NCBI GenBank assembly: GCA_946499835.1
Contig: CAMMTJ010000004.1
Location: forward strand, 15,148-79,147
Length of the DNA: 64,000 nt
Source: an uncultured Bacillota bacterium
GTDB taxonomy: Bacteria > Bacillota > Clostridia > Christensenellales > UBA1242
Direction of reading: 5' to 3'
Shown here: positions 15,869 through 33,842 of the stretch, one piece after another
Numbering within the stretch: position 1 is the stretch's first letter
Layout of the letters: each line of letters begins with the position of its first letter
The notes under the pieces: model-generated
What the model saw: the letters and a program-made list of their open reading frames with translations, nothing else
Told to the model about the DNA's origin: nothing
The model's database searches: none
Translations under genes and position numbers: made by a program

Positions 15869-16279
15869 TTAACGTTTTGAGAATTGAGATGCTTTTCTTG
15901 CCTTTTTGAGACCGTATTTCTTTCTCTCTTTCATTCTTGGGTCACGAGTAAGCAATCCTGCCTCTTTAAGTTCTTTCTTAAATTGTTCGTTTGCCTTAAC
16001 AAGCGCTCTTGCAAGACCGTGGCAAATTGCACCTGCTTGTCCTGAAAGTCCACCGCCTACAACTCTTACGATTGCGTCATATTTGTCAGTTGTTCCTGTG
16101 AGTTCAAGTGGTTGGCGAGCAATAAGCATAAGAGTATCCATTTGAAGATATTCTCCCATATCTCTGCCATTTACTGTAATTTTTCCGTTTCCTGGGAAAA
16201 GTCTAACTCTTGCAACAGATTTTTTTCTTCTTCCTGTTGAGATGATTTGACTAACATTCTTTGTTTTCTTCTCTGCCAT
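15869..16279 (-). CDS. rpsI: 30S ribosomal protein S9
   Basis: [48 protein letters not shown]. Confidence 0.95.
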
Positions 16280-16722
16280 TAGTTTCTCGCTCCTTTAATT
16301 TGGATTGTTTCAGGTTTTTGCGCTTGGTTGTTATGCTCACCATCTTTGTAAACATGAAGTCTTGTGAATTGTTTTCTTCCAAGGCTTGTTTTTGGAAGCA
16401 TACCTTTGATCGCCTTCTCAACTGCTTTAACAGAGTTCTTTCTCATAAGAGTGCCATAGTCAACTTCTTTGAGTCCGCCAACATAACCTGTGTGCCATCT
16501 CATTTTCTTGTCTGTGAGTTTCTTTCCTGTCAAAACAACTTTGTCGCTGTTAAGCACGATTACATAATCTCCACAATCAACATGAGGTGTGAAGATTGGT
16601 TTATTTTTTCCTGTCAAAATGTCTGCAACTTGGCTTGCCACTCTTCCAAGTGGAACATTTGTTGCGTCTACAACGAACCATTTTCTTTCAATGTCCGCTG
16701 GTTTTGCCATGTATGTTTTCAT
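16279..16722 (-). CDS. rplM: 50S ribosomal protein L13
   Basis: [20 protein letters not shown].. The ATG at 16722 is preceded by GGAGG; the ORF-track start at 16758 is upstream of the SD. Confidence 0.95.
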
Positions 16723-16841
16723 TCTATTCCTCCGAGTTTTTTCCGTCAAACAAGGCAAATTTTGTAGGCGGGGCTAGTGCAAACAAAAAACGCCTTAAAT
16801 TAAGACGCTTTTATTCTACATTTTCCCGGCCTCGTTGTCAA
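16723..16841 (-). promoter_or_regulatory. rplM promoter (TTGACA-17-TAGAAT) plus ~85-nt leader with a terminator-like hairpin
   Basis: Reverse strand: ttgaca (16841..16836), 17-nt spacer, tagaat (16818..16813). This is followed immediately by hairpin cgtcttaa-ttt-aaggcg (16807..16791) plus tttttt (16790..16785), then ~60 nt to the SD. Confidence 0.45.
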
Positions 16842-16868
16842 GCATTTTTCACAAGTTTTACGAAAAAA

Positions 16869-17510
16869 TTATTGCATAAGGTGCCCTGCAATAGCAATAC
16901 TTGCCTCATCTTCCACCAAATTGCCGGCAACACAGTCACAAAGACTAGCCAAACTTGCAATATAGTCTGCCTCATTCTTCTCAAATTTTGGCTTAAATTT
17001 TTCACAAGAAGCCAAGATAACCTCTTTTGGCATAAATGCATTTGCCATCTTCTCAGCAAATGATTGAGCATCATATAGTCCAAGTTTTGCACTGGCAAAA
17101 GTCCCTTTTTGAGCCTGAAAATTGCCCTTTACCTTTTCAATCTTATCTCTCATCAAACTTGCTTTTCGCCCTTGCAAAGCAAAGTCTTTTTTATCCAGAT
17201 TTTCCCCTTGTTTCACCCTCAAATCTACGGCACTTTTGTGCAAAGCAGAAAGCATCTCATCACCTGCAATCTCTTCTTGCAACAAAGCAGAAAGCACTTT
17301 TGAAATGTCAACCTTCTCCCCTTTCACTTCATGGGAAAAACACTCTTGAAGTGCCTTTTTCACATTATCTTGTGATATAGTCTCTTTGCCACTTATTTTG
17401 TTTATCATATTGACGTAAGAAACAGCAAGTGCCACGGCAGTAGATGGAGAAATCTCGCCGTCAAAATAATCTCCCAGTTTTTTCTCTTGCACAAATTCAA
17501 CGTTATTCAT
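16869..17510 (-). CDS. Hypothetical protein (213 aa)
   Basis: The ATG at 17510 (MNNVEFVQ) is preceded by AAGGGGG. There is a faint resemblance to cyclodeaminase/cyclohydrolase (FTCD_C) proteins (GEISPSTAVALAVSYVNMI), too weak to call. Confidence 0.65.
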   Translation of the reverse strand: MNNVEFVQEKKLGDYFDGEISPSTAVALAVSYVNMINKISGKETISQDNVKKALQECFSHEVKGEKVDISKVLSALLQEEIAGDEMLSALHKSAVDLRVKQGENLDKKDFALQGRKASLMRDKIEKVKGNFQAQKGTFASAKLGLYDAQSFAEKMANAFMPKEVILASCEKFKPKFEKNEADYIASLASLCDCVAGNLVEDEASIAIAGHLMQ

Positions 17511-17641
17511 AAAAGCCCCCTTAAACCATGCCCTTTTATCATATGTATATATTAACATATATTCATGAATAAATCAAAATGATTTTGCATAAATATTCAA
17601 AATTTTTTTGTGAAAAATTTTTCTCTTTTGTCGAAAATTTG

Positions 17642-17670
17642 TTGACTTGGGCTATTATATATATTATAAT
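17642..17670 (+). promoter_or_regulatory. Consensus sigma-A promoter TTGACT-17-TATAAT of the giant-protein operon
   Basis: ttgact at 17642..17647, exactly 17 nt of spacer, tataat at 17665..17670; counted base by base. Confidence 0.6.
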
Positions 17671-17725
17671 AAAACTGTTATTTGAAAAGAATAACTTTAT
17701 CTAACTGAAATCAAAGGGGGTTCAT

Positions 17726-17929
17726 ATGACAAACAGCATGTCTGTTTTCGTCATGATGAATATATTTAATTCATCAGCCTGTCCATTTGTTTCTTTTGAC
17801 TGCCCTGATTTTGAAGGGTCTCATTCTTACAGATTTTTCTCACACAATGATGGTGTGATTACATATAAACTTAATATGAAGTCAAAAGCAAAGGTGAACA
17901 CAGAACCTATTGGTGTGTGTCATGGCTAA
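17726..17929 (+). CDS. Putative 67-aa small protein (4 Cys), first ORF of the operon
   Basis: AAAGGGGG SD 5 nt upstream of the ATG. The stop TAA (17927..17929) overlaps the next ATG (17922). It could alternatively be a structured 5' leader. Confidence 0.4.
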   Translation: MTNSMSVFVMMNIFNSSACPFVSFDCPDFEGSHSYRFFSHNDGVITYKLNMKSKAKVNTEPIGVCHG

Positions 17930-19070
17930 AAAGACGAAACAAAACAAAATTGAAATAGTTGAAACAAAAGACAATTTAACACAAACACCACAAACAGAGG
18001 AAATGAAAAGTTCGTCTGAGGTTTTTGTTGTTGAGACTGACGGCACAGTTAAGGAAGAGCAAAGTAAGGAAAGCGGAGCACTTGTGCCTGTAAATGAAGA
18101 GCAGCAAACCAAGAAGAAAAAGAAGAAAAAGCCTCTTAAAAAAACCTCTTGGAAAAGAAGAGCGTTCAACTTGGCCACAACCTGTGTGCTTGGTATAGTC
18201 ACCGGTTGTGTGCTTGGCAGTTGGTATTACAACACCACACTCAAACCACAAGTTGACTACCCTACCGATGAGGTGATAGCAACTTTGCAAGACGACATAG
18301 ATGATGTGCTTGCAAGTGCACTTGGAAGAACGCTTTCAGATTCAGAAAAGGAAAACTGGGTTGACATTGCAAAATCGCAAGGACTCACCCCTGCCGATCT
18401 TACGGCAAGCCAAAACGCTCAACTGGCACTTTTTAACATCACCTTCGCTGACTCATACAGCGCAATCGGTCATGGCAAGTGTGCAACCATTGCCACTCAG
18501 ACCGTTTATGGCGAGATAACTTTTGATGGACAGACTTACAGTGCCACTCAAATATCACTCGGCACTTTCGCAAAAATCGCCGTTCGCTCACAAATGGATA
18601 AAGATAATCAAGGTTTGATAACACAGGTGCGAGGCTCAAACATAACTGAAACAAGTGCTGACTGGACTGGAACACCTCAGTCTTACACGCAAGCGGACTT
18701 TATTGCAATGGCTGGCGGACTTCCATCAACGGTGCACCCTTATATCATCACTTCAAAGACAATTCTTGATGAGCAAAGCGTGGTTGTCAATCAAATTTCT
18801 GGCGAGAACGGAGAAACTCTTTACTCGTTTACAGTCAACCTTGATCCAATCAACAGCGTTGCACTTTATGTCAGACAAATGAAAATGGTGAGTCAACTTG
18901 GCTCTTATCCAGAATTCTCTGACGTGCAAAACACTTTCATCATTGATGAGAATTGGAACTTAGTTCAAATTGATGTGCTTGAACATTACACACAAATTGC
19001 AATGGGCGTCAAAGCAAGTTGCGAAGGCACGCTTAGCACACTCTTTGAAATAAACGGAAAAATGGAATAA
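17922..19070 (+). CDS. Bitopic membrane protein: Lys/Glu-rich cytoplasmic head (KKKKKKK), one TM, ~270-aa external domain
   Basis: ORF with TM AFNLATTCVLGIVTGCVLGSWYY. The ATG at 17922 (MAKKTKQNK) has no SD and is start-stop coupled to the small ORF. No family recognised. Confidence 0.8.
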   Translation: MAKKTKQNKIEIVETKDNLTQTPQTEEMKSSSEVFVVETDGTVKEEQSKESGALVPVNEEQQTKKKKKKKPLKKTSWKRRAFNLATTCVLGIVTGCVLGSWYYNTTLKPQVDYPTDEVIATLQDDIDDVLASALGRTLSDSEKENWVDIAKSQGLTPADLTASQNAQLALFNITFADSYSAIGHGKCATIATQTVYGEITFDGQTYSATQISLGTFAKIAVRSQMDKDNQGLITQVRGSNITETSADWTGTPQSYTQADFIAMAGGLPSTVHPYIITSKTILDEQSVVVNQISGENGETLYSFTVNLDPINSVALYVRQMKMVSQLGSYPEFSDVQNTFIIDENWNLVQIDVLEHYTQIAMGVKASCEGTLSTLFEINGKME

Positions 19071-19085
19071 AAGGAGGGAAACAGC

Positions 19086-22000
19086 ATGAGAAAGTTTTTT
19101 AGATTTGCTTCATACACACTTTTGTATATTTTTGTAACTTTTGCCTCAGCGGTAGGCGTTGTTTTCATCTCCTCTTCTGCCGACAGTGGAAAAAGCAATG
19201 AGGAGGGTGGAATAACCATTCCTCCACAAATCACACAGATTATGGAAAGAATTTCATCTGCAAACGCCCTAGACATCAATCTGGAAGTTGATATTTCAAC
19301 TGCAAATGAAAACTATACCGTGACCATTGATGCTCTTGCCGACCTTTCACAAGGGCTTGAAAACATCTCGGTTGAAGGAACAATCTCTGCGCAAATTGGA
19401 CAAGACAACATCGATGTCAATATTGTTTATGAAAATGGAACAATTTACATGGAGATGTTCAACGGCAAATTCAAGATGGAAACCGCCAATATGCTTGACA
19501 GTGTAACTCAAATTTTGGAAATACTCAATATTGAAATTCCAGAACTGGGCATTGACTTTTCATCTATTGACACAAACACCATTCTCTCAATGCTTTCAAA
19601 CATAACTGAAACAAAGGGAGAAAATTCAATAACCCTCAAAATATCTCTTCCTATCGTGGGAGACTTGGAAGTTGTTTGCGACCTTAACTATTCAATCAAC
19701 CAAGTTGTGCTCCCATCAGTATCTATTGAAGGCACTCAAATCAGTCTATTTTCAAGCATTGACTACCCTGACCAAATTTCGATAGACCAACCTGCTAATG
19801 ACGAATATATCAATATAACTGACGTAGTCAATGTTGCAAGCGCACTCCTCTCTTATCTTGACAAAGATGAGATTGGACTTGACCTCAATGTCAAATATAA
19901 CGATTTTGACATATCAGGATCACTTAGTGCAAACCTTGACCAAATGAACTCTATCCTTTCAACTTCACTTCTTGGATATGACCTTAACCTTGTTGCCATT
20001 GACAATGTCATCTACCTTGAATTTGGCAATGTCAACTTGCAATATGACCTCAATGATGTAAACCTTATCACAGACCTTCTCTATAAGCACTTTGGCATAG
20101 AAATTCCACTTCAAAAGATCACTGACATCTTGGTATCAATAAACCAAGGCGATCTTATGGACACTGTTTCAACCATTTTGCCAGAAGGAAGTTCTGTTGA
20201 TATTGACAGCATTGACCTTGGCATAATTGAAAGTTTTGTAAAAGATGGCGACAATTATACCATCACATTGAAAGACATCGGGCAAGTTTCTTGCACTCTT
20301 TCTGGCAATGAACTCTCTTCACTTGCATTCTCTGGCTTTGGAGTTCAAGCATCAGTAAAAACAAGAACGCCTCAACCTATCACTCTCAAAAATCCAGTCA
20401 CCGCTTACAGCGACCTCACCCTTCTTATAGACGGCATAGATGCTATGCTTTCAATGAAAGACTTTTCAAGATTTGACGGAATGCTTAACATAACCTTTGG
20501 CGAAACATCTCTTCCAGTAAATTACTCAATCGCATTGGATGAGACTGGCATAAAAGCATACTTTTCAACAACTATTTTAGGAAAAGAAATTTCACTTTCA
20601 TTCCAAGAAGGCATCTTGTATATCGATATCGCCTCTCTTGATCAAAATGGAAGCGAAGCTCTCGGACAATCAATCAAACTTAAAGCGGATGAAAATGATA
20701 TTCAAAGTCTTATCGAGTATATCGGCGGGTTCCTTTCATTTGACATGCAAGATGATATAACCTCTTCTCTCACAGATATGCTCAAAGCACTTCTTAACCC
20801 AGAACTAGACTTCAATTTGATTGACAGCATCACTCCTGCCGACAATGGAGTGCAAATCTCAGCACTTGGAGCAAACCTTTCTCTCTTCTATGACCAATAT
20901 GTCAATAGAGCCTTGATTGAACTTGATGGCGTCAAAGTTGACGCATCAATCATGCCTTCATCAAACTCACTTGAACTTGGCATTGATCAAAAAGAATATG
21001 TTTCATTGTCAAATCTTCTTGACAAAGTAAAAGCAAACTTTGACCTTATTGCCAAAGGCGATTATTCAATTCAAATTGATGGAAATTATGACACAATCGC
21101 ATTTAATGGTGGAGCAAATTATGTTGATGGCAAAATTTCACTTGCTCTTGGCGTCACCATTGGAGAGAACAATTTTGTGGTAAAATATGTAGATGAAGTC
21201 ATCTATGCAGAAATTGACAATCTCAATATTTCAGTTAAACTGGCAGATAAAGATAGGCTGTTCTCATTTATTCAAGACACTTTCGGCGTTGACTTGTCAG
21301 CAATGCTTGATGAAATCCTCTCAGGAGCATCTACAGAAGAGTTTGACTTGAAAGAAATGATCACAAAAGCACTTCTTTCTCTCACTGAAAATGACATCAC
21401 CCTTTCTCTTGATGATATAACTGCAAAAGTTGTTTTCAATGACGCAAAACTTGACCGCATTGACATTTCATATGCAAGCGACCTTTCTGCAAGCCTTCGT
21501 TTGCTTGAAAAGATTTATCCTGTTCAACTTGAAGAAGAATATTTCGATATCTCTTCTGCCCTTCCATTTGTGAGCGCTGTTTATAACTATATCACATCAG
21601 AACAATACAGCATCAACCTGTCTGCAAAGACAATGGATGAGAATAAGAGCGAACTTATATCTGGTGAGGTGCAAATTGACTTGACTGGACTTCTTCAATT
21701 TAACGCATCAGTAAATATGGGAAGCGACATAATAGAGGCAAGTTTGTATGATGGATACATCTATGCAAACTACAACGGACTTCTGCTCAAAATAAAAACT
21801 TCTGACTTTGAAGAAATTCTCGTCATCCTTATGGAAATGATTGGCATTGATCCTTCAATCTTGCCATTCCTTGAAGATGTGGCAAACAATGTTGATGTGG
21901 ACATCAGTGGACTTGAACACCTCTTCCCTGAAATTGATATGGGCGACCCACTTTCAATCATCAAAATATTTAAGAGCATTTCAGTAAGTGACAACACCCT

Positions 22001-24257
22001 TCAAGTTGCACTTGATGCAGGAGTGCTTGGCGGAAGTGAAGATGATGAGGACATCTTGATCAAAATCGTAATGCAAGGCGATGCTTTGCAAAACATTGTG
22101 ATTGAAAACTTGAACTACAACAACCAAATCATTTCACTCGGCCTCAATATTCTTGACTTTGAAGGCGTTGGCGTGCCAGACACAAGCAGAAATTATGTTG
22201 ATTTGTCAAATGCAAACTCTCTTATCAAGGCAATCATCAACACATCAGAACTTGATTATTACCACATCACTGGAACGCTTAACATCCCTATGAACGTTAT
22301 TGGTTTTATCAAACTTGATATGTTTGAAATTCCTTTTGATATTCAAGTTAAACTTATTGATCGCGTGCCTGAAATAATGATCACCATTGGTGAAATTCCA
22401 ATCTTCCCAATTGTAAACACAGACGGAAACACATTTGGAAGCAACAGAATGGCTTACGCATATTACAAAGACGGCTATTTCTATCTTCACAGAACAGAAA
22501 AAAGCGCCGGTGGAAAAACACTTGAAAAGATGACAAAAATCCACTACTCTGAATTCTTCCGCGACCCAATGTCATACTTCCAATTCTTGACAGGATTTAG
22601 TGACACAATTATTGACGCAATCAATGATGCAATCGCTCTTTCACAAAACAGAGAAACCCCAATGGATATGAGCAAGATTATCAACAGTTTCACAGCAAAT
22701 GGAGAGAACTTCTCACTTTCACTCAACCTTGCCGAACTTGCAAACAACCCTGATCTTGACTCTATCACAATTGGACTCCAAACAATCAACAATGAAAGCA
22801 CAAATGGAAAAGATTATCTTGCACTTGCATCTCTTGACATGTTTATGCCATTTGCAAACGCTTTTGAGATGAATTTGAAATCTGACAATATCGCTCTTGT
22901 TGATATTGGACAAGAACTTGACTTTACTGCTCTTTACAATTTCATAAATCGTTATGACAACGAACTTGGCTTTGGCGAAAATGAAAATTGGTCAGCAGAA
23001 AATGGCAGTTGGACACAAGGTGAAACTGTGGTTTACACTTTATCCTTTGTTGAAAATGGTGGCGAAGATGTCGCTGACATAACAACTGCCGTTGGCTCAC
23101 CTATCACTCTGCCAGTGCTCACAGACAGAGTTGAAACAAATGAGCAAGGACAGACCACATACACCTTTGATGGTTGGTACACTTCAACTGATTATTCAGT
23201 CAAATTTGACTCTACAACAATGCCAAGAGGCAACACCACCCTTTATGCAAAATGGATAGTTGAAACAAGATATTACCGCACATTGTCATTCAAAACTTTC
23301 ACTTCAACAACATTTGACAGCATAACAGCACTTGAAGGCGAACCTATCACTTTGCCAATTCTCGACAAAAAGACTGAAACACAAGACAATATCACAACAA
23401 CTTACGCATTTGACGGCTGGTATAGTGATGAAAACTTTACTCAAAAATTCACCTCAACAGTTATGCCAAGCGTGGACACCACCCTCTATGCAAAATGGGT
23501 GGTAACCCAAGTGCAAGAAACTCGCTCAGTAAAAATTTATGACAATGGCGTTTTGATCTTTGATGAGCAAGTAAATCTTGGTGAAAAGATCGATCTTGAA
23601 AGTTTGGGAGAAAAATACAATAGTGACACACTCTTCTATCTTGACGAAAATTATCAAAATCAATATGATGGTGACTTCGTGGTAAATGATGACCTCACCC
23701 TTCATATCAGAAACAAATACACCATTGTGATTGAAAGTGAGTTTGGCGATGCTTATAGGCAAGAAATTTCACTCTATCAAGGTGAAACTTTTGAGCAATA
23801 TATCAAAGAACAATCATCATATGTGTTTGATGATGGCACGCAAACAGAAGAAGTGACTTACACCTTCAATGGTTATGACAACTTGCTTGACCAAATGCCA
23901 AACCAAAATTGGACAATTTCAGCAAACTGGTCGGTTGATACAAAATATTACTACACCGTTTCATTTGATTTGCGTTGGTATTTGGTATTAGGCCCTTGCT
24001 ATGCTGGAACAAAAGTTGTCACACCAGCACAGCCTATTCCATCTTTCAAGGTTCTTGAAGGCACAACAGTTGACCTGACAGAGTATAGACCAACTTGCAA
24101 AGCGTATCGCACAGCAATTCCAATTGATCCAACAGAATTTGTTGCCACAAGTTGGGGAACAAGCGCATGGGCTGATTACACTTCTGCTGGAAGCGGAGTA
24201 ACGTCAATTGTTATCACTGCTGACACAACACTTTATGCTTGTTGGGAAATGGCTTAA
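19086..24257 (+). CDS. Giant (1723 aa) N-terminally membrane-anchored surface protein
   Basis: AAGGAGGG SD 7 nt upstream. N-terminal TM FFRFASYTLLYIFVTFASAVGVVFISS, six cryptic ~190-240 aa modules, and C-terminal Listeria-Bacteroides (Flg_new-type) repeats with the FDGWY..TLYAKW signature (nt ~23030..24254). No LPXTG. Confidence 0.9.
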   Translation: MRKFFRFASYTLLYIFVTFASAVGVVFISSSADSGKSNEEGGITIPPQITQIMERISSANALDINLEVDISTANENYTVTIDALADLSQGLENISVEGTISAQIGQDNIDVNIVYENGTIYMEMFNGKFKMETANMLDSVTQILEILNIEIPELGIDFSSIDTNTILSMLSNITETKGENSITLKISLPIVGDLEVVCDLNYSINQVVLPSVSIEGTQISLFSSIDYPDQISIDQPANDEYINITDVVNVASALLSYLDKDEIGLDLNVKYNDFDISGSLSANLDQMNSILSTSLLGYDLNLVAIDNVIYLEFGNVNLQYDLNDVNLITDLLYKHFGIEIPLQKITDILVSINQGDLMDTVSTILPEGSSVDIDSIDLGIIESFVKDGDNYTITLKDIGQVSCTLSGNELSSLAFSGFGVQASVKTRTPQPITLKNPVTAYSDLTLLIDGIDAMLSMKDFSRFDGMLNITFGETSLPVNYSIALDETGIKAYFSTTILGKEISLSFQEGILYIDIASLDQNGSEALGQSIKLKADENDIQSLIEYIGGFLSFDMQDDITSSLTDMLKALLNPELDFNLIDSITPADNGVQISALGANLSLFYDQYVNRALIELDGVKVDASIMPSSNSLELGIDQKEYVSLSNLLDKVKANFDLIAKGDYSIQIDGNYDTIAFNGGANYVDGKISLALGVTIGENNFVVKYVDEVIYAEIDNLNISVKLADKDRLFSFIQDTFGVDLSAMLDEILSGASTEEFDLKEMITKALLSLTENDITLSLDDITAKVVFNDAKLDRIDISYASDLSASLRLLEKIYPVQLEEEYFDISSALPFVSAVYNYITSEQYSINLSAKTMDENKSELISGEVQIDLTGLLQFNASVNMGSDIIEASLYDGYIYANYNGLLLKIKTSDFEEILVILMEMIGIDPSILPFLEDVANNVDVDISGLEHLFPEIDMGDPLSIIKIFKSISVSDNTLQVALDAGVLGGSEDDEDILIKIVMQGDALQNIVIENLNYNNQIISLGLNILDFEGVGVPDTSRNYVDLSNANSLIKAIINTSELDYYHITGTLNIPMNVIGFIKLDMFEIPFDIQVKLIDRVPEIMITIGEIPIFPIVNTDGNTFGSNRMAYAYYKDGYFYLHRTEKSAGGKTLEKMTKIHYSEFFRDPMSYFQFLTGFSDTIIDAINDAIALSQNRETPMDMSKIINSFTANGENFSLSLNLAELANNPDLDSITIGLQTINNESTNGKDYLALASLDMFMPFANAFEMNLKSDNIALVDIGQELDFTALYNFINRYDNELGFGENENWSAENGSWTQGETVVYTLSFVENGGEDVADITTAVGSPITLPVLTDRVETNEQGQTTYTFDGWYTSTDYSVKFDSTTMPRGNTTLYAKWIVETRYYRTLSFKTFTSTTFDSITALEGEPITLPILDKKTETQDNITTTYAFDGWYSDENFTQKFTSTVMPSVDTTLYAKWVVTQVQETRSVKIYDNGVLIFDEQVNLGEKIDLESLGEKYNSDTLFYLDENYQNQYDGDFVVNDDLTLHIRNKYTIVIESEFGDAYRQEISLYQGETFEQYIKEQSSYVFDDGTQTEEVTYTFNGYDNLLDQMPNQNWTISANWSVDTKYYYTVSFDLRWYLVLGPCYAGTKVVTPAQPIPSFKVLEGTTVDLTEYRPTCKAYRTAIPIDPTEFVATSWGTSAWADYTSAGSGVTSIVITADTTLYACWEMA

Positions 24258-24262
24258 AAATT

Positions 24263-24290
24263 AAGACATAGAAAACTCTATGTCTTTTTT
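24263..24290. terminator. Strong terminator after the giant gene (shared with convergent minE-like gene)
   Basis: aagacatag-aaaact-ctatgtctt followed by tttt. Confidence 0.8.
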
Positions 24291-24302
24291 ATTTACAAAA
24301 AA

Positions 24303-24533
24303 TTATGGCAAATATCCAAAAGGCTTAACTCTTGTCGCTTCAATTTCAATAGAAAAGCATAATTTTTCGCCCTCTTTTTTGAACCGCACAACAACTGGCT
24401 GGCAAAGAGTCAAATATTGCTGGGCTATTGGAGAAATTTCTCCTTTAAGCACTTCGCACACTCTTGTCATATCAAAAGATTTATCCCTTTGAAGCAGGTT
24501 TTCAAGCCTTGATTCTGCAATTATATATTCCAT
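24303..24533 (-). CDS. minE: MinE-like topological specificity factor (divergent, 76 aa)
   Basis: Lies 9 nt downstream of minD with a GGAGGAGGA SD. RLENLLQRD.. and the C-terminal pattern LKGEISPIAQQYL..VVVRFKKEGEKLCFSIEIEA resemble MinE (RLQ.il..DR ; l..eil.vi.kYv.i....v.v.l......l.l.i.l). The N-terminal amphipathic helix is not obvious. Confidence 0.45.
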   Translation of the reverse strand: MEYIIAESRLENLLQRDKSFDMTRVCEVLKGEISPIAQQYLTLCQPVVVRFKKEGEKLCFSIEIEATRVKPFGYLP

Positions 24534-24542
24534 TCCTCCTCC

Positions 24543-25334
24543 TTACACTTTTTTGCGTATATTTCGTTTGAAATAACCCATAAGCCCACGATACTTGTAT
24601 GTGCAATCAAATATTTTCTTTGAGCCATTGTGAATATTTTCACTTAGAAGTGTAAATGCCCTCGCACTTTCAACTGAGTTCATATAGCCACCAACTGAAC
24701 AGGATGTGCCAATGGCGTCATCTTCTGGTATAACGCCAAGCAAAGGTATATTAAGAGAACGGACAATAGTTTCAATGTTCATAAGTTCACCATTCATCAA
24801 AAGGTCACCTCGCATTCTGTTTATCACAAGCCCTTTGCTTTGAATGTCATAGTCTGAGAGAAGCCCAAGCACTTTGTCGGCATCTCTTATGCTTGAAAGA
24901 TGTGGAGTCACCACAATTATCGCTTCATTTGCCGAAAAAACTGCTCTATGAAAGCCAGCCTCTACCCCTGCTGGACAATCGATCAAGATATAGTCAAAAC
25001 TTTTATCAAGGCAGTCAACCACGTTTTTTATATGCTCGCCCAGAATTTTGCTTCTATTATAAGCATGTGAAGATGGCATGACATAGAGTGATGATATTTT
25101 TTTGTCTTGCACGAGCGCCTGCCTTGCACGACATCTGCCCATGATAACATCAGTTATGTCAAAAACAACTTGATTTTCAACGCCCATAACAACATCAAGG
25201 TTGTTAAGACCAATATCAACATCAAGAAGGACAACCCTGAAACCAAGTTTTGCAAGGTTTGCACCAAGATTTGCGCAAACGGTAGTTTTTCCCACTCCAC
25301 CTTTTCCACTTGTTAAGACGATTTTTCTTGCCAT
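24543..25334 (-). CDS. minD: Septum site-determining ATPase MinD
   Basis: Deviant Walker A SGKGGVGKTT, DVDIGLNNLDVVMG, and a C-terminal amphipathic tail. Confidence 0.9.
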   Translation of the reverse strand: MARKIVLTSGKGGVGKTTVCANLGANLAKLGFRVVLLDVDIGLNNLDVVMGVENQVVFDITDVIMGRCRARQALVQDKKISSLYVMPSSHAYNRSKILGEHIKNVVDCLDKSFDYILIDCPAGVEAGFHRAVFSANEAIIVVTPHLSSIRDADKVLGLLSDYDIQSKGLVINRMRGDLLMNGELMNIETIVRSLNIPLLGVIPEDDAIGTSCSVGGYMNSVESARAFTLLSENIHNGSKKIFDCTYKYRGLMGYFKRNIRKKV

Positions 25335-25466
25335 AACAAACTCCTTGGCTCAATTTTAATACAACAGGCTCACACGGACAAAGAAGATAAAAATAAAAAA
25401 ATCTCCTTTTTTGTCTAAATAGAGATTTTTGATTAAAATAAAAATCTTGCCTTAAAAAAGACAAGA

Positions 25467-26468
25467 TCAAAAATTTTCAACAATTTTTGCAAGAAGAGCA
25501 GGATCTTCCAACAGTTTTCCAGCACCCAATATTGAAATGTTTTCGGCATCGTCTGCAATTGTGAATGGATAACGGAATTTGCGTTTCAAGAAATTGTCAA
25601 GCCCCGCGATTTGTGATACGCCACCCGCAAAAATAACTCCGCTGTTTATTATATCAGTTGATATTTCTGGTGGAAGTGATGTGATTGTCACATCGACAGC
25701 CTTGACGATCTCTTCAAAAAATGGCTCAATAACTGGCAAAATGTCGCTTGATGTGATTATGTATGATTTTGGAATTTTTGTTTCAACATCAACACCTGTC
25801 ACTTCCATATTCAATGTGTCATTGACAAACAAACTGCCCACTTCATTTTTCAAAGTTTCTGCTGATGAAAGACCAATGATTATGCCATGATTGTATGCAA
25901 TAGTGTGTGATATTGCCACATCCATAGCCCTTCCGCCAATTCCTAGTGTGCCACCTTTAAGAATTGAATTCATGTTGATGACTGCAATATCTGTGTTTGC
26001 ACCACCAATATTGACCACCATGTTTACTTTTGTTGAACTTATATTCTTCCCTGCCCCAAGACAAGTGCAAACAACTGTTGGCACAAGTGTCACTTCACGA
26101 AAACCAACATCATGGAAAAGTGAAAGATAGTTTTGTTTTTCTTCACGACTCAGTGCACAATTGACAAGAACAACGACATTGTCTTTTTTCTTTCTGTATT
26201 CAACTTTTTTGAAAAGGTATGTGAGAAGTTCGATGCAATATTCATAATTTTTTACAACACCATTGATAACTGGTGAAAAAACCTCAACACTGTCATTTGT
26301 TTTGCCCATGAGTTTTTTTGCCTCTTGGCCAAGTCCAATAACTTTGTAGCCTTGTGGTGTTGGCTCAGCAGCAACAAGCGTTGGTTCGCAAAGAGCAAGT
26401 CCGTTATCACGAATATAAATTTTCGTGTTTGCTCCGCCAATTTCTATCGCATATTTGTAATCAACCAT
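25467..26468 (-). CDS. MreB/Mbl-family actin-like protein (divergent)
   Basis: IEIGGANTKIYI, VNIGGANTDIAV and FAGGVSQIAGLDNFL are actin-fold phosphate and adenosine motifs. The ATG at 26468 is preceded by GGAGG. Confidence 0.75.
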   Translation of the reverse strand: MVDYKYAIEIGGANTKIYIRDNGLALCEPTLVAAEPTPQGYKVIGLGQEAKKLMGKTNDSVEVFSPVINGVVKNYEYCIELLTYLFKKVEYRKKKDNVVVLVNCALSREEKQNYLSLFHDVGFREVTLVPTVVCTCLGAGKNISSTKVNMVVNIGGANTDIAVINMNSILKGGTLGIGGRAMDVAISHTIAYNHGIIIGLSSAETLKNEVGSLFVNDTLNMEVTGVDVETKIPKSYIITSSDILPVIEPFFEEIVKAVDVTITSLPPEISTDIINSGVIFAGGVSQIAGLDNFLKRKFRYPFTIADDAENISILGAGKLLEDPALLAKIVENF

Positions 26469-30494: not shown

Positions 30495-33400
30495 ATGCGA
30501 AATTCAACAAAACACAGAAAAAAAATAGCATTTGGACTGGCTCTCTTGTCGCCTTTGGCAGTGCTGGGCGGACTTGGACTGGCACAAAGTGGTCAAGTTT
30601 TGGCAGATTCAAGTTACTACGTTGATTATAGAGAAACAGTTGAGGTTACAAATGGTTCTTTCACACAAGGGGCAAACCCTTATGCGAGCGGAAACCTCAC
30701 TGGCTGGACATTAACAAACACAGAAAGCAAAGCCACAGGGATGATTATCGATGTAGGCCAAACTTTTTCACAATATCAACAAAACACATATATGCTTGAT
30801 GAAAACCCAGGCAGAGCAGGTTCTGACAATAAGATTTTGATGATCAACTCAAAAGATGAAAATGATGATGAGGGAGGCTATACTCACAAAGGTTACACAT
30901 CATCCACCATCACCCTTTCAGCCAATTCTTATTACAGATTTTCTATTGATGCAAAAACTTCCCTCAATGGATCTCCTGCTGAGGCAACGCACGGATCAAT
31001 TTATATCAGTGGACTGACAGATGAAGACGGCAATGAAGTTTCTTGTGCACGAGAAAACTTTGAAAACACCACTTGGCAAACTTATTACTTCTATCTTGTG
31101 ACTGGTGACGAAGAGCAAGAGATCACCATTGATCTCTATCTGGGCTCAAAGACCGCTTCTACTGACGGTGGAGTTGTATTCTTTGACGATGTGATTTTGG
31201 AACAATATTCTCAAAACACATTCTATCGCGTTATGGGTTACACACAAAGCAGCACAACAGCAAATGAAAACACTGTTTATCTGCTTGACGAACTTCAATC
31301 AGCCTCTGCTCAAATTGATATGAGTGGCTATAACTTCGATTTTGAAAATGAAATCACAGATGACAACTATTCAACTCTTGGCGATGAATGGGAAGCACTC
31401 ACCACTGGAACAAATGCTCAATATGGAAACGCATTTATCCTTCCAGTATCAAGATACACCCAAGCATCTCAATTCCGTGATTTGACTGGTGAAAACTATG
31501 CCTTTGCTGGAAACACACTCTCATACAACACCGAAACAGGCACAGAAAACACCCAAGCACTTGTTCTTTATTCAGACACCAACAGAACAACAGTTTATGG
31601 CGTTGAGTCAAATGATATTGAAATCAAAGCACATGGACTTTACAGATTTTCTGTTTATGTGAAAGTGTCAGATATGACAACTGGAAGTTTCTATATCACA
31701 GTAAAAGAAAATGACACGATTTATGAGACATATTCATTTGATGAAGATTTCCTTGCGACATCATCTGCAACAAGCGAGGCAATCTCATCCACAACTGGAA
31801 CAGCATTCAACAACAACTATCAACGCATTGACTTCTATGTCAAAGGACATCAGTTTTATGACTCATCAGTCAACTTGCAATTCTGGCTTGGAAATGATGA
31901 AACACCTGCAACTGGCTGTGTTTTCATAGACGATATCACTCTTTCATATGTTGATTATGAAGAATTTAGTGCAGGAACAAACAAACTTGAACTCAACTCA
32001 TTTACAGGTTCGCCAACCTTCACAAACGCATTTTTCAATCAAACAGAAAATGAGGACAATTCCCTCACCTACCCACTCAAAGCAAGTGGCTGGACGCTTG
32101 AACAAAATGACAACGCTCACATAAGCCAAGAGGCAGGTGTGGTTTACCTTTACAACAAAGAAACATACAACAATATGTATTCTGATTATGCATGGCACGG
32201 AATCTACCCAGGCTCACCTGACAAAATTGATGCTCCAAACAATGTATATATGTTCTATAACCAAAATTCAACATATCAAAACTTGACATCATCATCTTAC
32301 ACTTTGGAAGCAAACAAATATTATAGACTTACTTTTGACTATTTCACATCAAGTCAGTCAGCAGTTGATGCAAGTTTGACTGTTGAGGTCGTTGATGAAA
32401 ACAATATCACCCTATTCAAACAAAGCGGATTTTCAAGTGAAAACGCATGGGGTAAGGCAGATATCTATTTCCACACAGCAGAGCAATCTTCAAACAACAT
32501 TCAAGTGAGAGTTCATTTTGGTGAAAATGAAGATGGAAAGATGATGCAAGGTATTGCTTATCTTGACAACTTTGAAGTGATTTCTGACATCAGTGAAGAA
32601 ACATTTGATAGTGCAAATTGCAAAGTTGATTTGACTGACTATCTCCTCAATCTTGACCCAACAGATTCAATTGGTGCAGATATCTCAAACTCAACAGCAT
32701 ACACATTCTCTGTTGACGAAAGTGTTGGAAGTGCTTCAAACAGCCAAGGCGGAATCGTTCGCGGACAAGACAATGCCTACACTGCTGATTATGGCATCGA
32801 AGTTGAAGATTCAAATATTTTGGTTCTGTCAAACTTTGCACAAGCACAGTCAACCATCGCTTCAAATTACACTTTCAACTTGACATCAGGCTCTTACTAT
32901 AAACTGACATTTGATTTGCGAACAATCTTCCCTAACGGAACTGATGCCAAAGACTTCACAACAGATGATCACGAATGTTCTTTTGGCGTGTCAGTTGGTT
33001 TAAGCAACTTTGACCTTATTGGAAAACTCTTCTCAGAAGAAGAATTTACAACTTATACAATTTATTTCTACGCATCAGCAGACGCAACACCAACATTGCA
33101 ACTTCAACTCCTCTCTGATTGCGACAACACTGCTGGTTCTGCATTCTTCACACACATCTCATTCACCTCTTCAACTGAGGAAGAATACAACTCAGCAAGC
33201 ACATCATCAGATTATGAAAAAACAATTTTCACAGCATCTCAAACAGAGACTGATGACTCAACTGATGATGGCACAACCGATGACACAACTGATGAAAATC
33301 CAGACAACTCTGCTTGGCTTCTCATTCCTTCAATTATATTTGGCGTAGCAATCATCTTTGCAGTGCTTGCATTCGCTCTTAGAAAAATCAACATCAAGAA

Positions 33401-33842
33401 AGTTGAAAAGATAAGAGAAGAGACATACGATCGAAAGGTAAGCCTCAACTATGACCTCATCTTGAAAGAAGCGCAAAGAAGACGCGATGAAGAAGTCAAA
33501 ATGCTCAAAGCCACAGTTGCTGGACTTGAAAAACAAAAACAAGAACTTGAAACTTCTCACAAAGAAGAAATCAAAGAAGCAAGGCTAAATAGCAAAGGCA
33601 AGATTACCAAAGAGACAGAAAGAGCCTTCAAAACTTACACCTCTTCAATGAACAGGATTCAACAAAAAATTGAAATCTTGCAAGAACAAATCACCTCTGC
33701 TCTCAAACCTGAACATCTTCTTGATATTGAAAGAAAAGTTACAATGGAAGAAGAAAAACGTTTGAAAAATGAACGCAAACAAGTTTCAATAAATGAAAAA
33801 GATAAAAAGAATCTGCCCAAAGAGGATAAGAAGAAAAAATAA
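30495..33842 (+). CDS. Type-I membrane surface protein: signal peptide, four CBM-like beta-sandwich modules, Thr/Asp linker, TM, ~190-aa cytoplasmic coiled-coil tail
   Basis: Signal peptide ..GLAQSGQVLA/DSS. Modules end in VVFFDDVILEQY, CVFIDDITLSYV, IAYLDNFEVISD and SAFFTHISFTSS. TM AWLLIPSIIFGVAIIFAVLAFAL, then a Lys/Glu-rich heptad-like tail. No LPXTG. Confidence 0.85.
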   Translation: MRNSTKHRKKIAFGLALLSPLAVLGGLGLAQSGQVLADSSYYVDYRETVEVTNGSFTQGANPYASGNLTGWTLTNTESKATGMIIDVGQTFSQYQQNTYMLDENPGRAGSDNKILMINSKDENDDEGGYTHKGYTSSTITLSANSYYRFSIDAKTSLNGSPAEATHGSIYISGLTDEDGNEVSCARENFENTTWQTYYFYLVTGDEEQEITIDLYLGSKTASTDGGVVFFDDVILEQYSQNTFYRVMGYTQSSTTANENTVYLLDELQSASAQIDMSGYNFDFENEITDDNYSTLGDEWEALTTGTNAQYGNAFILPVSRYTQASQFRDLTGENYAFAGNTLSYNTETGTENTQALVLYSDTNRTTVYGVESNDIEIKAHGLYRFSVYVKVSDMTTGSFYITVKENDTIYETYSFDEDFLATSSATSEAISSTTGTAFNNNYQRIDFYVKGHQFYDSSVNLQFWLGNDETPATGCVFIDDITLSYVDYEEFSAGTNKLELNSFTGSPTFTNAFFNQTENEDNSLTYPLKASGWTLEQNDNAHISQEAGVVYLYNKETYNNMYSDYAWHGIYPGSPDKIDAPNNVYMFYNQNSTYQNLTSSSYTLEANKYYRLTFDYFTSSQSAVDASLTVEVVDENNITLFKQSGFSSENAWGKADIYFHTAEQSSNNIQVRVHFGENEDGKMMQGIAYLDNFEVISDISEETFDSANCKVDLTDYLLNLDPTDSIGADISNSTAYTFSVDESVGSASNSQGGIVRGQDNAYTADYGIEVEDSNILVLSNFAQAQSTIASNYTFNLTSGSYYKLTFDLRTIFPNGTDAKDFTTDDHECSFGVSVGLSNFDLIGKLFSEEEFTTYTIYFYASADATPTLQLQLLSDCDNTAGSAFFTHISFTSSTEEEYNSASTSSDYEKTIFTASQTETDDSTDDGTTDDTTDENPDNSAWLLIPSIIFGVAIIFAVLAFALRKINIKKVEKIREETYDRKVSLNYDLILKEAQRRRDEEVKMLKATVAGLEKQKQELETSHKEEIKEARLNSKGKITKETERAFKTYTSSMNRIQQKIEILQEQITSALKPEHLLDIERKVTMEEEKRLKNERKQVSINEKDKKNLPKEDKKKK

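Follow-up and report, generated by a model that had tools for sequence, protein, structure and literature searches.

The window analysed here is a 64,000-nucleotide stretch of contig CAMMTJ010000004.1 from an uncultured Bacillota bacterium (assembly GCA_946499835.1). It is chromosomal, with about 38% G+C, and contains an operon for uncharacterised envelope proteins that is preceded by a structured leader RNA. Two genes make up this operon: (b), which encodes a bitopic membrane protein, and (c), which encodes a giant protein anchored at its N-terminus. An earlier note on this DNA had proposed three genes, the first being a 67-codon open reading frame (ORF), termed (a), between the promoter and (b). 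However, the conserved element in that interval is a covarying RNA, and the operon consists of (b), (c) and the leader, not of three genes. Our data support (b)-(c) as a real and conserved operon behind a genuine consensus promoter. Indeed, the promoter is the top consensus match, at 11 of 12 positions, in the 10 kb that we scanned (16000..26000), and an element of the form TTGAC[A/T]-17-TATAAT, matching at 11 or 12 of the 12 positions with the same 17-nt spacing, precedes the leader in 39 out of 41 orthologous loci. Therefore, the promoter, which the earlier note had already recognised at 17642..17670, is more than a chance match.

Word-index homologue searches gave only 8 to 14 relatives of these genes, and the family was revealed by a pattern-based genome scan and a full HMMER search. 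The scan, made with the (b) alignment against one genome per GTDB species, yielded 60 loci from uncultured Clostridia, Eubacteriales and Christensenella-like metagenome-assembled genomes (MAGs), with more distant members in Bacilli labelled Erysipelotrichaceae, Coprobacillus or 'Mollicutes'. The HMMER search covered 1.84 billion representatives and returned 899 (b)-family clusters, 515 of them at E <= 1e-10. About 40 of the Clostridia loci retain the entire arrangement from rplM through (b) and (c) to minE-minD.

A (c) homologue lies directly 3′ of (b), on the same strand, in 58 of the 60 genomes. One of the two exceptions is a locus that ends inside (b). The other, L054, carries at 656..3342 a distant (b) homologue followed by genes resembling an extracytoplasmic function (ECF) sigma factor and a transmembrane anti-sigma factor, with no (c) giant, and is the sole such case in the 60 genomes. 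Two distant giants that seemed to lack (b), P0020 and P0023, in fact begin with a (b) ectodomain of their own and continue with (c) modules. Similarly, 10 of the 12 long proteins among the top 150 (b)-family representatives are (b)-(c) fusions, reaching 3194 aa, which brings the fusions to at least 12 protein clusters. For example, a fused form occurs in the cultured mouse-gut isolate Pumilibacter intestinalis, where it is annotated as 'hypothetical protein'. Given this adjacency and these fusions, (b) and (c) form one unit, as the earlier note had supposed. It had also held that giants found without their upstream ORFs in a survey of co-occurrence would speak against its system; such giants do exist with respect to (a), but not with respect to (b).

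We considered whether a further gene belongs to this unit, and a universal third partner was rejected, since three unrelated families account for the divergent genes upstream. In the Bacilli-type loci a membrane-bound XRE regulator lies upstream and the leader RNA is absent. In all eight of these loci (L048, L051, L052, L055, L056, L059, L060 and L063) a divergent gene of about 200-215 aa, on the minus strand some 100-800 nt upstream of (b), encodes an XRE-type HTH_3 domain with several transmembrane segments. As these loci are without the leader, the XRE-type regulator may stand in for it. A single Coprobacillus MAG carries two paralogous (b)(c) loci (L057 and L064). Their (c) gene is either a short one, of 700 aa, or divided between two ORFs of 396 and 352 aa, perhaps through decay or through frameshifts in the assembly.

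From the promoter to the (b) start, the nucleotide sequence is conserved even where the (b) proteins share only 31-59% identity. In a 13-sequence MAFFT alignment of leaders (A7), the RNAalifold consensus comprises 43 pairs, of which 20 keep pairing through changes on both sides, compared to 9.9 +/- 2.1 in shuffles. Pairing is kept in 88.5% of the cells of this unfitted, MAFFT-only alignment, with a covariation score of 0.295 as compared to at most 0.143 in slid-partner controls. A model-guided alignment of 44 rows contains double changes in 33 of the 43 pairs and 182 compensatory cells, against 52 in shuffles. The covariance model R1 matches the window leader at 17711..17927 (152 bits, E 1e-32) and detects a single copy of the element in each of 40 loci, out of 62 searched, always on the + strand and ending at the (b) start codon. 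A pattern scan of metagenomes added six further leaders, five of which abut a (b) homologue while the sixth is cut by the end of its locus; the other 11 of the 17 pattern matches were chance matches. No copies before other genes were found in 889 kb of loci, nor among these 17 matches. When the window leader and those of L010 and L041 were compared with Rfam 15 (4227 families) at E <= 10, only unrelated noise was returned, and eight loci scanned at the gathering score gave no Rfam match.

The leader opens with a 5′-terminal hairpin, and a UUAAGGGG(G) tract pairs over a long range with an internal tract, CUCCUUAA, that resembles an anti-Shine-Dalgarno (anti-SD) sequence. Hairpins P1 and P2 are hypervariable in sequence with their pairing retained, and a further hairpin, CACGG/CCGUG, covaries (CAUGG/CCAUG, CACAC/GUGUG). 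The blocks ACAUAUA ... AAUAUGUCAAAAG are invariant. At the 3′ end, a C-rich tract pairs with a purine tract just 5′ of the (b) AUG; the ACACA...UGUGU hairpin of the window corresponds to the CCC/GGG hairpin that sequesters the SD in other members (helices 9-10 of A8, which covary). Possible alternative long-range helices (CUUUUGAC/GUCAAAAG, CAUUUG/CAAAUG and CAGC/GCUG) are complementary in 79.5% of cells and are too invariant to show covariation. By its covariation, the leader shows the conserved structured aptamer expected of a riboswitch class. In the window clade, the usual CUCCUUAA tract has given way to GCCCUGAUUUUGAAGGGU, a local hairpin with a U-rich stretch after it (17802..17819 in the window), and a scan flagged this element as terminator-like. 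The hairpin and the 5′ GGGGG tract are rivals for the CCCU strand, and the element could be an attenuator variant.

ORF (a) lies within this leader. Its start, AAAGGGGG followed after 5 nt by ATG, is as the earlier note had described it, but the ORF encodes three cysteines rather than the four then counted, and no cysteine position is conserved. The frame is open in 13 of 39 leaders, truncated in L009 and absent in the remaining 25. Two close relatives of ORF-bearing loci, L018 and L027, lack it yet score more than 200 bits with the RNA model. Between pairs of (a) sequences, differences are spread evenly over codon positions 1/2/3 (for example, 15/16/11 and 21/19/25), and amino-acid identity falls below nucleotide identity (51% vs 68%; 67% vs 80%). 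Moreover, the conserved amino-acid blocks fall on conserved RNA blocks, the variable residues track compensatory changes in stems, and no (a) was detected in Bacilli-type or fused loci. Because the ORF is so often closed, its codon positions change evenly and its amino-acid identity is the lower of the two, we conclude that no peptide (a) is conserved; on this comparison, (a) appears to be a lineage-restricted reading of the leader. In two ORF-bearing clades the (a) frame nonetheless has no stops where about 4.7 are expected, and the other frames carry 4-10. This stop-free frame was seen in the window and in L005-L007, L010, L013-L016, L022, L029 and L045, and in such clades ribosomes may also read the leader as an upstream ORF, with translation mattering rather than its product. 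For example, termination of (a) on AUGGCUAA could help to start (b), whose SD is weak in the window.

The (b) start codon, ATG 17922, sits in ATGGCTAA and overlaps the stop of (a). A mechanical ORF list begins (b) at TTG 17910, and the N-termini of homologues (MA[KN]K...) support the ATG. Both the sequence and an AlphaFold2 (AF2) model, which was built on an alignment of 8 sequences (predicted local distance difference test, pLDDT, 73.5), agree with what had been read from the DNA at the outset, namely a protein of 382 aa with a run of seven Lys, one transmembrane segment and an external domain of about 270 aa. In the model, residues 1-71 form a disordered tail, residues 77-107 a transmembrane helix, and the ectodomain is confidently predicted. 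This cytoplasmic tail is predicted to be disordered, and across the family it is poorly conserved and anywhere from near zero to about 200 aa long. A Foldseek search of the ectodomain against the PDB gave Mycobacterium tuberculosis LprG as the best match (3mh8/3mha; E 1e-6, probability 1.0), followed by DUF1329, SAOUHSC_02783, LolA, LolB, RseB and MucB.

For (c), the AF2 model covers residues 1-1200 only (14 aligned sequences, pLDDT 74) and shows an N-terminal helix, a pattern of about 190 aa occurring five times, and a distinct cap domain. Each module consists of a helix, six strands, helices and then five or six strands. In Foldseek, single modules matched LolA (4ki3, 2w7q, 8v1k, 8orn) and LprG/LprF (3mha, 3mh9, 4qa8) with probability 1.0 and template-modelling scores (TM-scores) of 0.4-0.53. 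The cap contains the nearly invariant residues Y1133, F1157 and I1179 and is the C-terminus of the short Bacilli-type homologues. The C-terminal ~400 aa hold Flg_new repeats, scoring 62.7 bits against a cut-off of 27 and 32.5 against 20.95 (PF09479, TIGR02543; residues 1317-1390 and a second repeat). Thus, the earlier description of (c) as a 1723-aa protein that begins 15 nt after (b), is anchored at its N-terminus by a hydrophobic segment and ends in Listeria-Bacteroides repeats is confirmed. It had also seen no wall-anchoring signal, and our motif and Pfam scans agree: there is no LPXTG motif in (c), save an internal NPVTA at residue 436, and there are no SLH or CWB2 domains. These results support the view that (c) is held by its N-terminal transmembrane segment.

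Conservation along (c) is uneven. Compared with P0012, identity is 66% in the transmembrane segment, 51% in D1, 49% in D2 and 46% in the cap, and only 22% in D3 and 24% in D4. The cap is 90% identical to that of P0011, and D3 and D4 are the least conserved domains throughout (22-28%). Homologues range from about 950 to more than 2600 aa and from about 3 to more than 10 modules; those of the Bacilli type, at about 950-1000 aa, have neither middle modules nor Flg_new repeats. The transmembrane segment itself is unusually conserved in sequence, is rich in small residues (ASAYG) and has a median length of 24 aa in 39 homologues. Together with the invariant residues in the transmembrane helix of (b), this suggests that the two helices may pack together in the membrane.

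None of these proteins belongs to a described sequence family. Pfam and NCBIfam searches with (a), (b), (c) and distant homologues gave nothing beyond Flg_new, the best clan match of the window proteins, to LppX_LprAFG, was not significant (E 0.21; 11.9 bits, with the cut-off at 24), and sequence-profile searches of the PDB gave no match at E <= 1. In addition, hhalign detected no sequence relationship between (b) and (c) despite their common fold. By contrast, the predicted models of the (b) ectodomain and of five to six tandem (c) modules show the open antiparallel beta-barrel, with about 11 strands and a helical lid, that defines the LolA_LolB clan (LolA, LolB, LppX_LprAFG, MucB_RseB), and are assigned on that basis to predicted LolA/LprG-type folds. 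The claim that the proteins resemble no nameable family therefore holds at the level of sequence but not at that of fold, where (b) and (c) fall within the LolA_LolB superfamily.

Table 1. Features of the (b)-(c) operon and its leader, in window coordinates.
Feature	Coordinates	Strand	Remarks
Promoter TTGACT-17-TATAAT, sigma-70/SigA-type	17642..17670	+	11/12 consensus positions
Structured 5′ leader RNA, ~245 nt	17677..17921	+	Start inferred from the -10 box
ORF (a), 67 codons	17726..17929	+	Not a conserved protein gene; maybe a translated upstream ORF in this clade
Leader 3′ hairpin ACACA...UGUGU	17898..17918	+	Ends 3 nt before the (b) AUG
Gene (b), 382-aa bitopic membrane protein	17922..19070	+	Family of 899 clusters at 50% identity
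(b) transmembrane helix, residues 77-107	18150..18242	+	AF2; invariant T94, G95, L98, G99, W101, Y102
(b) ectodomain (~270 aa), predicted LolA/LprG-like open beta-barrel	18264..19067	+	AF2 pLDDT mostly 80-95
(c) SD AAGGAGGG	19071..19078	+	7 nt before the ATG
Gene (c), 1723-aa giant	19086..24257	+	Begins 15 nt after (b)
(c) N-terminal hydrophobic anchor, residues 7-32	19104..19181	+	Consensus LSYSLLY...ASAYGVI; no lipobox
Five predicted tandem LolA/LprG-like domains, D1-D5, ~190 aa each, residues 47-1022	19224..22151	+	AF2 periodicity, Foldseek
Conserved cap domain, residues ~1043-1290	22212..22955	+	Far boundary from family alignment
Flg_new (Listeria-Bacteroides) repeats, 2 canonical and ~3 degenerate	23034..24254	+	Pfam/NCBIfam match
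Terminator-like hairpin, bidirectional, common to the operon and convergent minE	24263..24286	both	Followed by a T tract

The operon ends at a hairpin and T tract, as previously noted, although calling this terminator strong was generous, as only 3 of the 10 pairs in its stem are G-C. One flank of the operon holds rpsI-rplM and a divergent gene for a 229-aa hypothetical protein (16869..17558, minus strand); homologues of the latter are found in the five closest loci only, and other clades have unrelated genes at that position. The other flank holds the convergent minE, minD and an mreB-like gene. Farther along, an ORF of 1115 aa (30495..33842, plus strand) encodes an N-terminal signal peptide, a C-terminal transmembrane segment and a Lys/Glu-rich coiled tail. 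It has syntenic orthologues without a Pfam match in L001 and L003, and counts as a second envelope protein of this block that is conserved yet uncharacterised.

We favour a model, to which we give about an even chance (roughly 0.5), in which (b) and (c) would build a membrane-rooted, two-part surface fibre or stalk whose translation is gated by the leader RNA. The near-consensus promoter would drive (b)-(c) behind a structured leader of about 245 nt, whose 3′ hairpin would occupy the ribosome-binding region of (b) and most likely gates translation initiation upon some signal; the 5′ GGGG tract, the CUCC tract and the SD may also interact. The (b) protein would span the membrane, its Lys/Glu-rich tail facing the cytoplasm and its LolA/LprG-fold domain lying outside. 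The (c) protein would be held by its conserved transmembrane helix and would expose five LolA/LprG-fold domains, the cap and, in Clostridia, the Flg_new repeats. Its adjacency to (c), and fusions in which the (b) domain is N-terminal, suggest that (b) serves as the membrane-proximal base module of the (c) chain. The array would then be a stalk or fibre that carries the cap and the Flg_new tip through and beyond the wall, as is suggested by a conserved base (transmembrane helix, D1 and D2) and a conserved tip (the cap) joined by middle modules that vary in number and sequence.

Several points weigh against this model. The fold call rests on AF2 predictions from shallow alignments (8 and 14 sequences; pLDDT 73-74), and the structural matches reach moderate TM-scores of 0.4-0.5. 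It is also possible that the N-terminal segment of (c) is a signal peptide that is cleaved off. That the best-known proteins with a LolA/LprG fold are lipid carriers speaks for a lipid relay over a fibre. As for the RNA, the window leader folded alone does no better than many shuffles (z = -1.44), and the case for its structure is built on comparison across species. Furthermore, the window clade has a reduced hairpin over the ribosome-binding site, and coupling to translation of the upstream ORF may take over its role there. Lastly, a riboswitch is one candidate role for the leader, on a par with a protein-binding or thermosensing one.

The main rival to a fibre is a relay of lipids, lipoproteins or glycolipids, in which each module would hold acyl chains in its cavity and the chain of (b) and (c) would pass hydrophobic cargo from the membrane out across the wall, or in the opposite direction to scavenge, on the pattern of LprG/LppX, the Lol pathway or the Lpt bridge. 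By analogy with such systems we regard it as possible, though clearly the less probable of the two. The best structural matches of known function are indeed carriers of acyl lipids or lipoproteins (LprG bound to phosphatidylinositol mannoside (PIM) or triacylglyceride, LolA, LolB), a bitopic base with a chain of like-folded modules resembles LptC with its LptA oligomer, and the module is also present in reduced-genome lineages labelled Mollicutes or Erysipelotrichaceae. However, module numbers from about 3 to more than 10 and poorly conserved middle modules are not expected of a relay with a fixed span, and no transporter of the ATP-binding cassette (ABC), major facilitator superfamily (MFS) or resistance-nodulation-division (RND) type is conserved beside (b)-(c). 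Moreover, the LolA fold is a plugged barrel rather than a continuous groove, and it has non-lipid roles in Firmicutes, GerS being an example (bioRxiv 10.1101/2025.01.13.632879). A bolder version, which we consider doubtful, joins both parts of the locus: the leader would be a new riboswitch class for an envelope-related metabolite or second messenger, and would control a trans-wall apparatus of monoderms, a membrane-rooted chain of LolA-type lipid carriers passing acylated molecules between the membrane and the surface or environment.

Less likely again is an envelope sensor or regulator modelled on RseB/MucB or GerS, in which the LolA-like domains would bind either a partner protein or some mislocalised component of the envelope and would signal through the (b) transmembrane helix and Lys-rich tail. 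RseB and MucB do appear among the structural matches, the L054 homologue of (b) adjoins ECF sigma and anti-sigma-like genes in place of (c), and the Bacilli-type loci have their conserved divergent, membrane-bound XRE regulator. Nevertheless, an array of 1000-2600 aa with an adhesin-type repeat tip exceeds the needs of a sensor, the (b) tail is disordered, variable in length and poorly conserved, and Pfam and NCBIfam scans show no signalling domain. Finally, the earlier idea of (a) as a Cys-containing small subunit, translationally coupled to (b) and in stoichiometric complex with (c), is very improbable, for its good SD and ATG, its stop overlapping the (b) start and its stop-free frame in two clades are outweighed by its absence or truncation in most leaders, its lack of coding-type substitutions and of conserved Cys, the coincidence of its conservation with RNA blocks, and its absence from Bacilli-type and fused loci.

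The interest of this locus lies mainly in the leader RNA and in an unusual use of the LolA fold. Its carriers are uncultured Christensenella-like and other gut Clostridia, with relatives labelled Erysipelotrichaceae or Mollicutes, bacteria that are abundant in the gut and whose envelopes are almost unstudied. The leader is an orphan structured RNA with strong covariation, outside Rfam, and is directly testable as a riboswitch or a protein-binding leader. Similarly, the fused protein of the cultured P. intestinalis offers an experimental handle. If the modules do bind lipids, the array would be a new route by which single-membrane bacteria could move hydrophobic molecules across the wall.

In comparison with known RNAs, the leader is like translational riboswitches and other leaders that sequester ribosome-binding sites, orphan riboswitch candidates among them, in its length, its covariation, its invariant unpaired blocks, its 3′ hairpin over the ribosome-binding site and its internal CUCCUUAA tract paired with a 5′ UUAAGGGG. 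It differs in that it has no match among the Rfam families and stands before one operon only, and a third of its members can also be read as an ORF of 60-70 codons. On the protein side, the closest systems are the mycobacterial LprG, LppX and LprF (Pfam LppX_LprAFG), which provide the best structural matches of the (b) ectodomain and the (c) modules (E 1e-6 to 1e-4, TM-scores up to 0.53) and which likewise sit exposed at the outer surface of the cytoplasmic membrane. However, (b) and (c) have no significant sequence match to them, are anchored by a transmembrane helix of about 24-30 residues instead of a lipobox, form tandem arrays of 3 to more than 10 domains, and lack a partner MFS transporter gene; lipid binding is putative here. 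LolA and LolB of diderms share the open beta-barrel with a helical lid, as seen by Foldseek. Those proteins each consist of one domain, soluble or lipid-anchored, and act together with LolCDE in the periplasm, whereas (b) and (c) are membrane-anchored, multi-domain and found in lineages of Clostridia and Bacilli, with no Lol genes in the locus.

The (b)-(c) proteins also invite comparison with envelope-spanning bridges. Like (b)-(c), both LptC-LptA-LptD and the AsmA-like TamB and YhdP combine a bitopic base or N-terminal transmembrane anchor with a long run of like-folded beta modules that points away from the membrane, but these form a jellyroll or beta-taco groove rather than a plugged LolA barrel, and the span of (c) is variable. 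We know of no outer membrane in the lineages that carry (b)-(c). A diderm-type AsmA/TamB assignment was considered and dropped, as there is no Pfam AsmA or DUF490 match and AF2 shows discrete helix-plus-sheet domains; neither TamB, YhdP nor other AsmA-like structures appeared among the top 50 Foldseek matches. Surface proteins with Flg_new/InlB B-repeats, from Firmicutes and Bacteroidota, share the PF09479 repeats in the C-terminal part of (c). These repeats are accessory in the (c) family, being absent from the Bacilli-type members, and the conserved core is instead the LolA-fold array with its cap.

Among Firmicutes, GerS of Clostridioides difficile likewise has a LolA fold without sequence similarity to LolA; it is an activator of the amidase CwlD, showing that interactions between proteins are among the roles open to this fold (bioRxiv 10.1101/2025.01.13.632879). 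It differs in being a single-domain lipoprotein of spore germination, and neither an amidase partner nor a sporulation context is seen at (b)-(c). GerS was also the one relevant result when the literature was searched for Gram-positive proteins with tandem LolA-like domains. Within Rfam, Pfam, NCBIfam, the PDB and the literature searched, there is no description of a transmembrane-anchored tandem array combined with a dedicated bitopic partner and a covarying orphan leader. Membrane-anchored arrays with such a partner would constitute a new LolA/LprG-fold architecture, of which the (b) family alone accounts for about 900 clusters.

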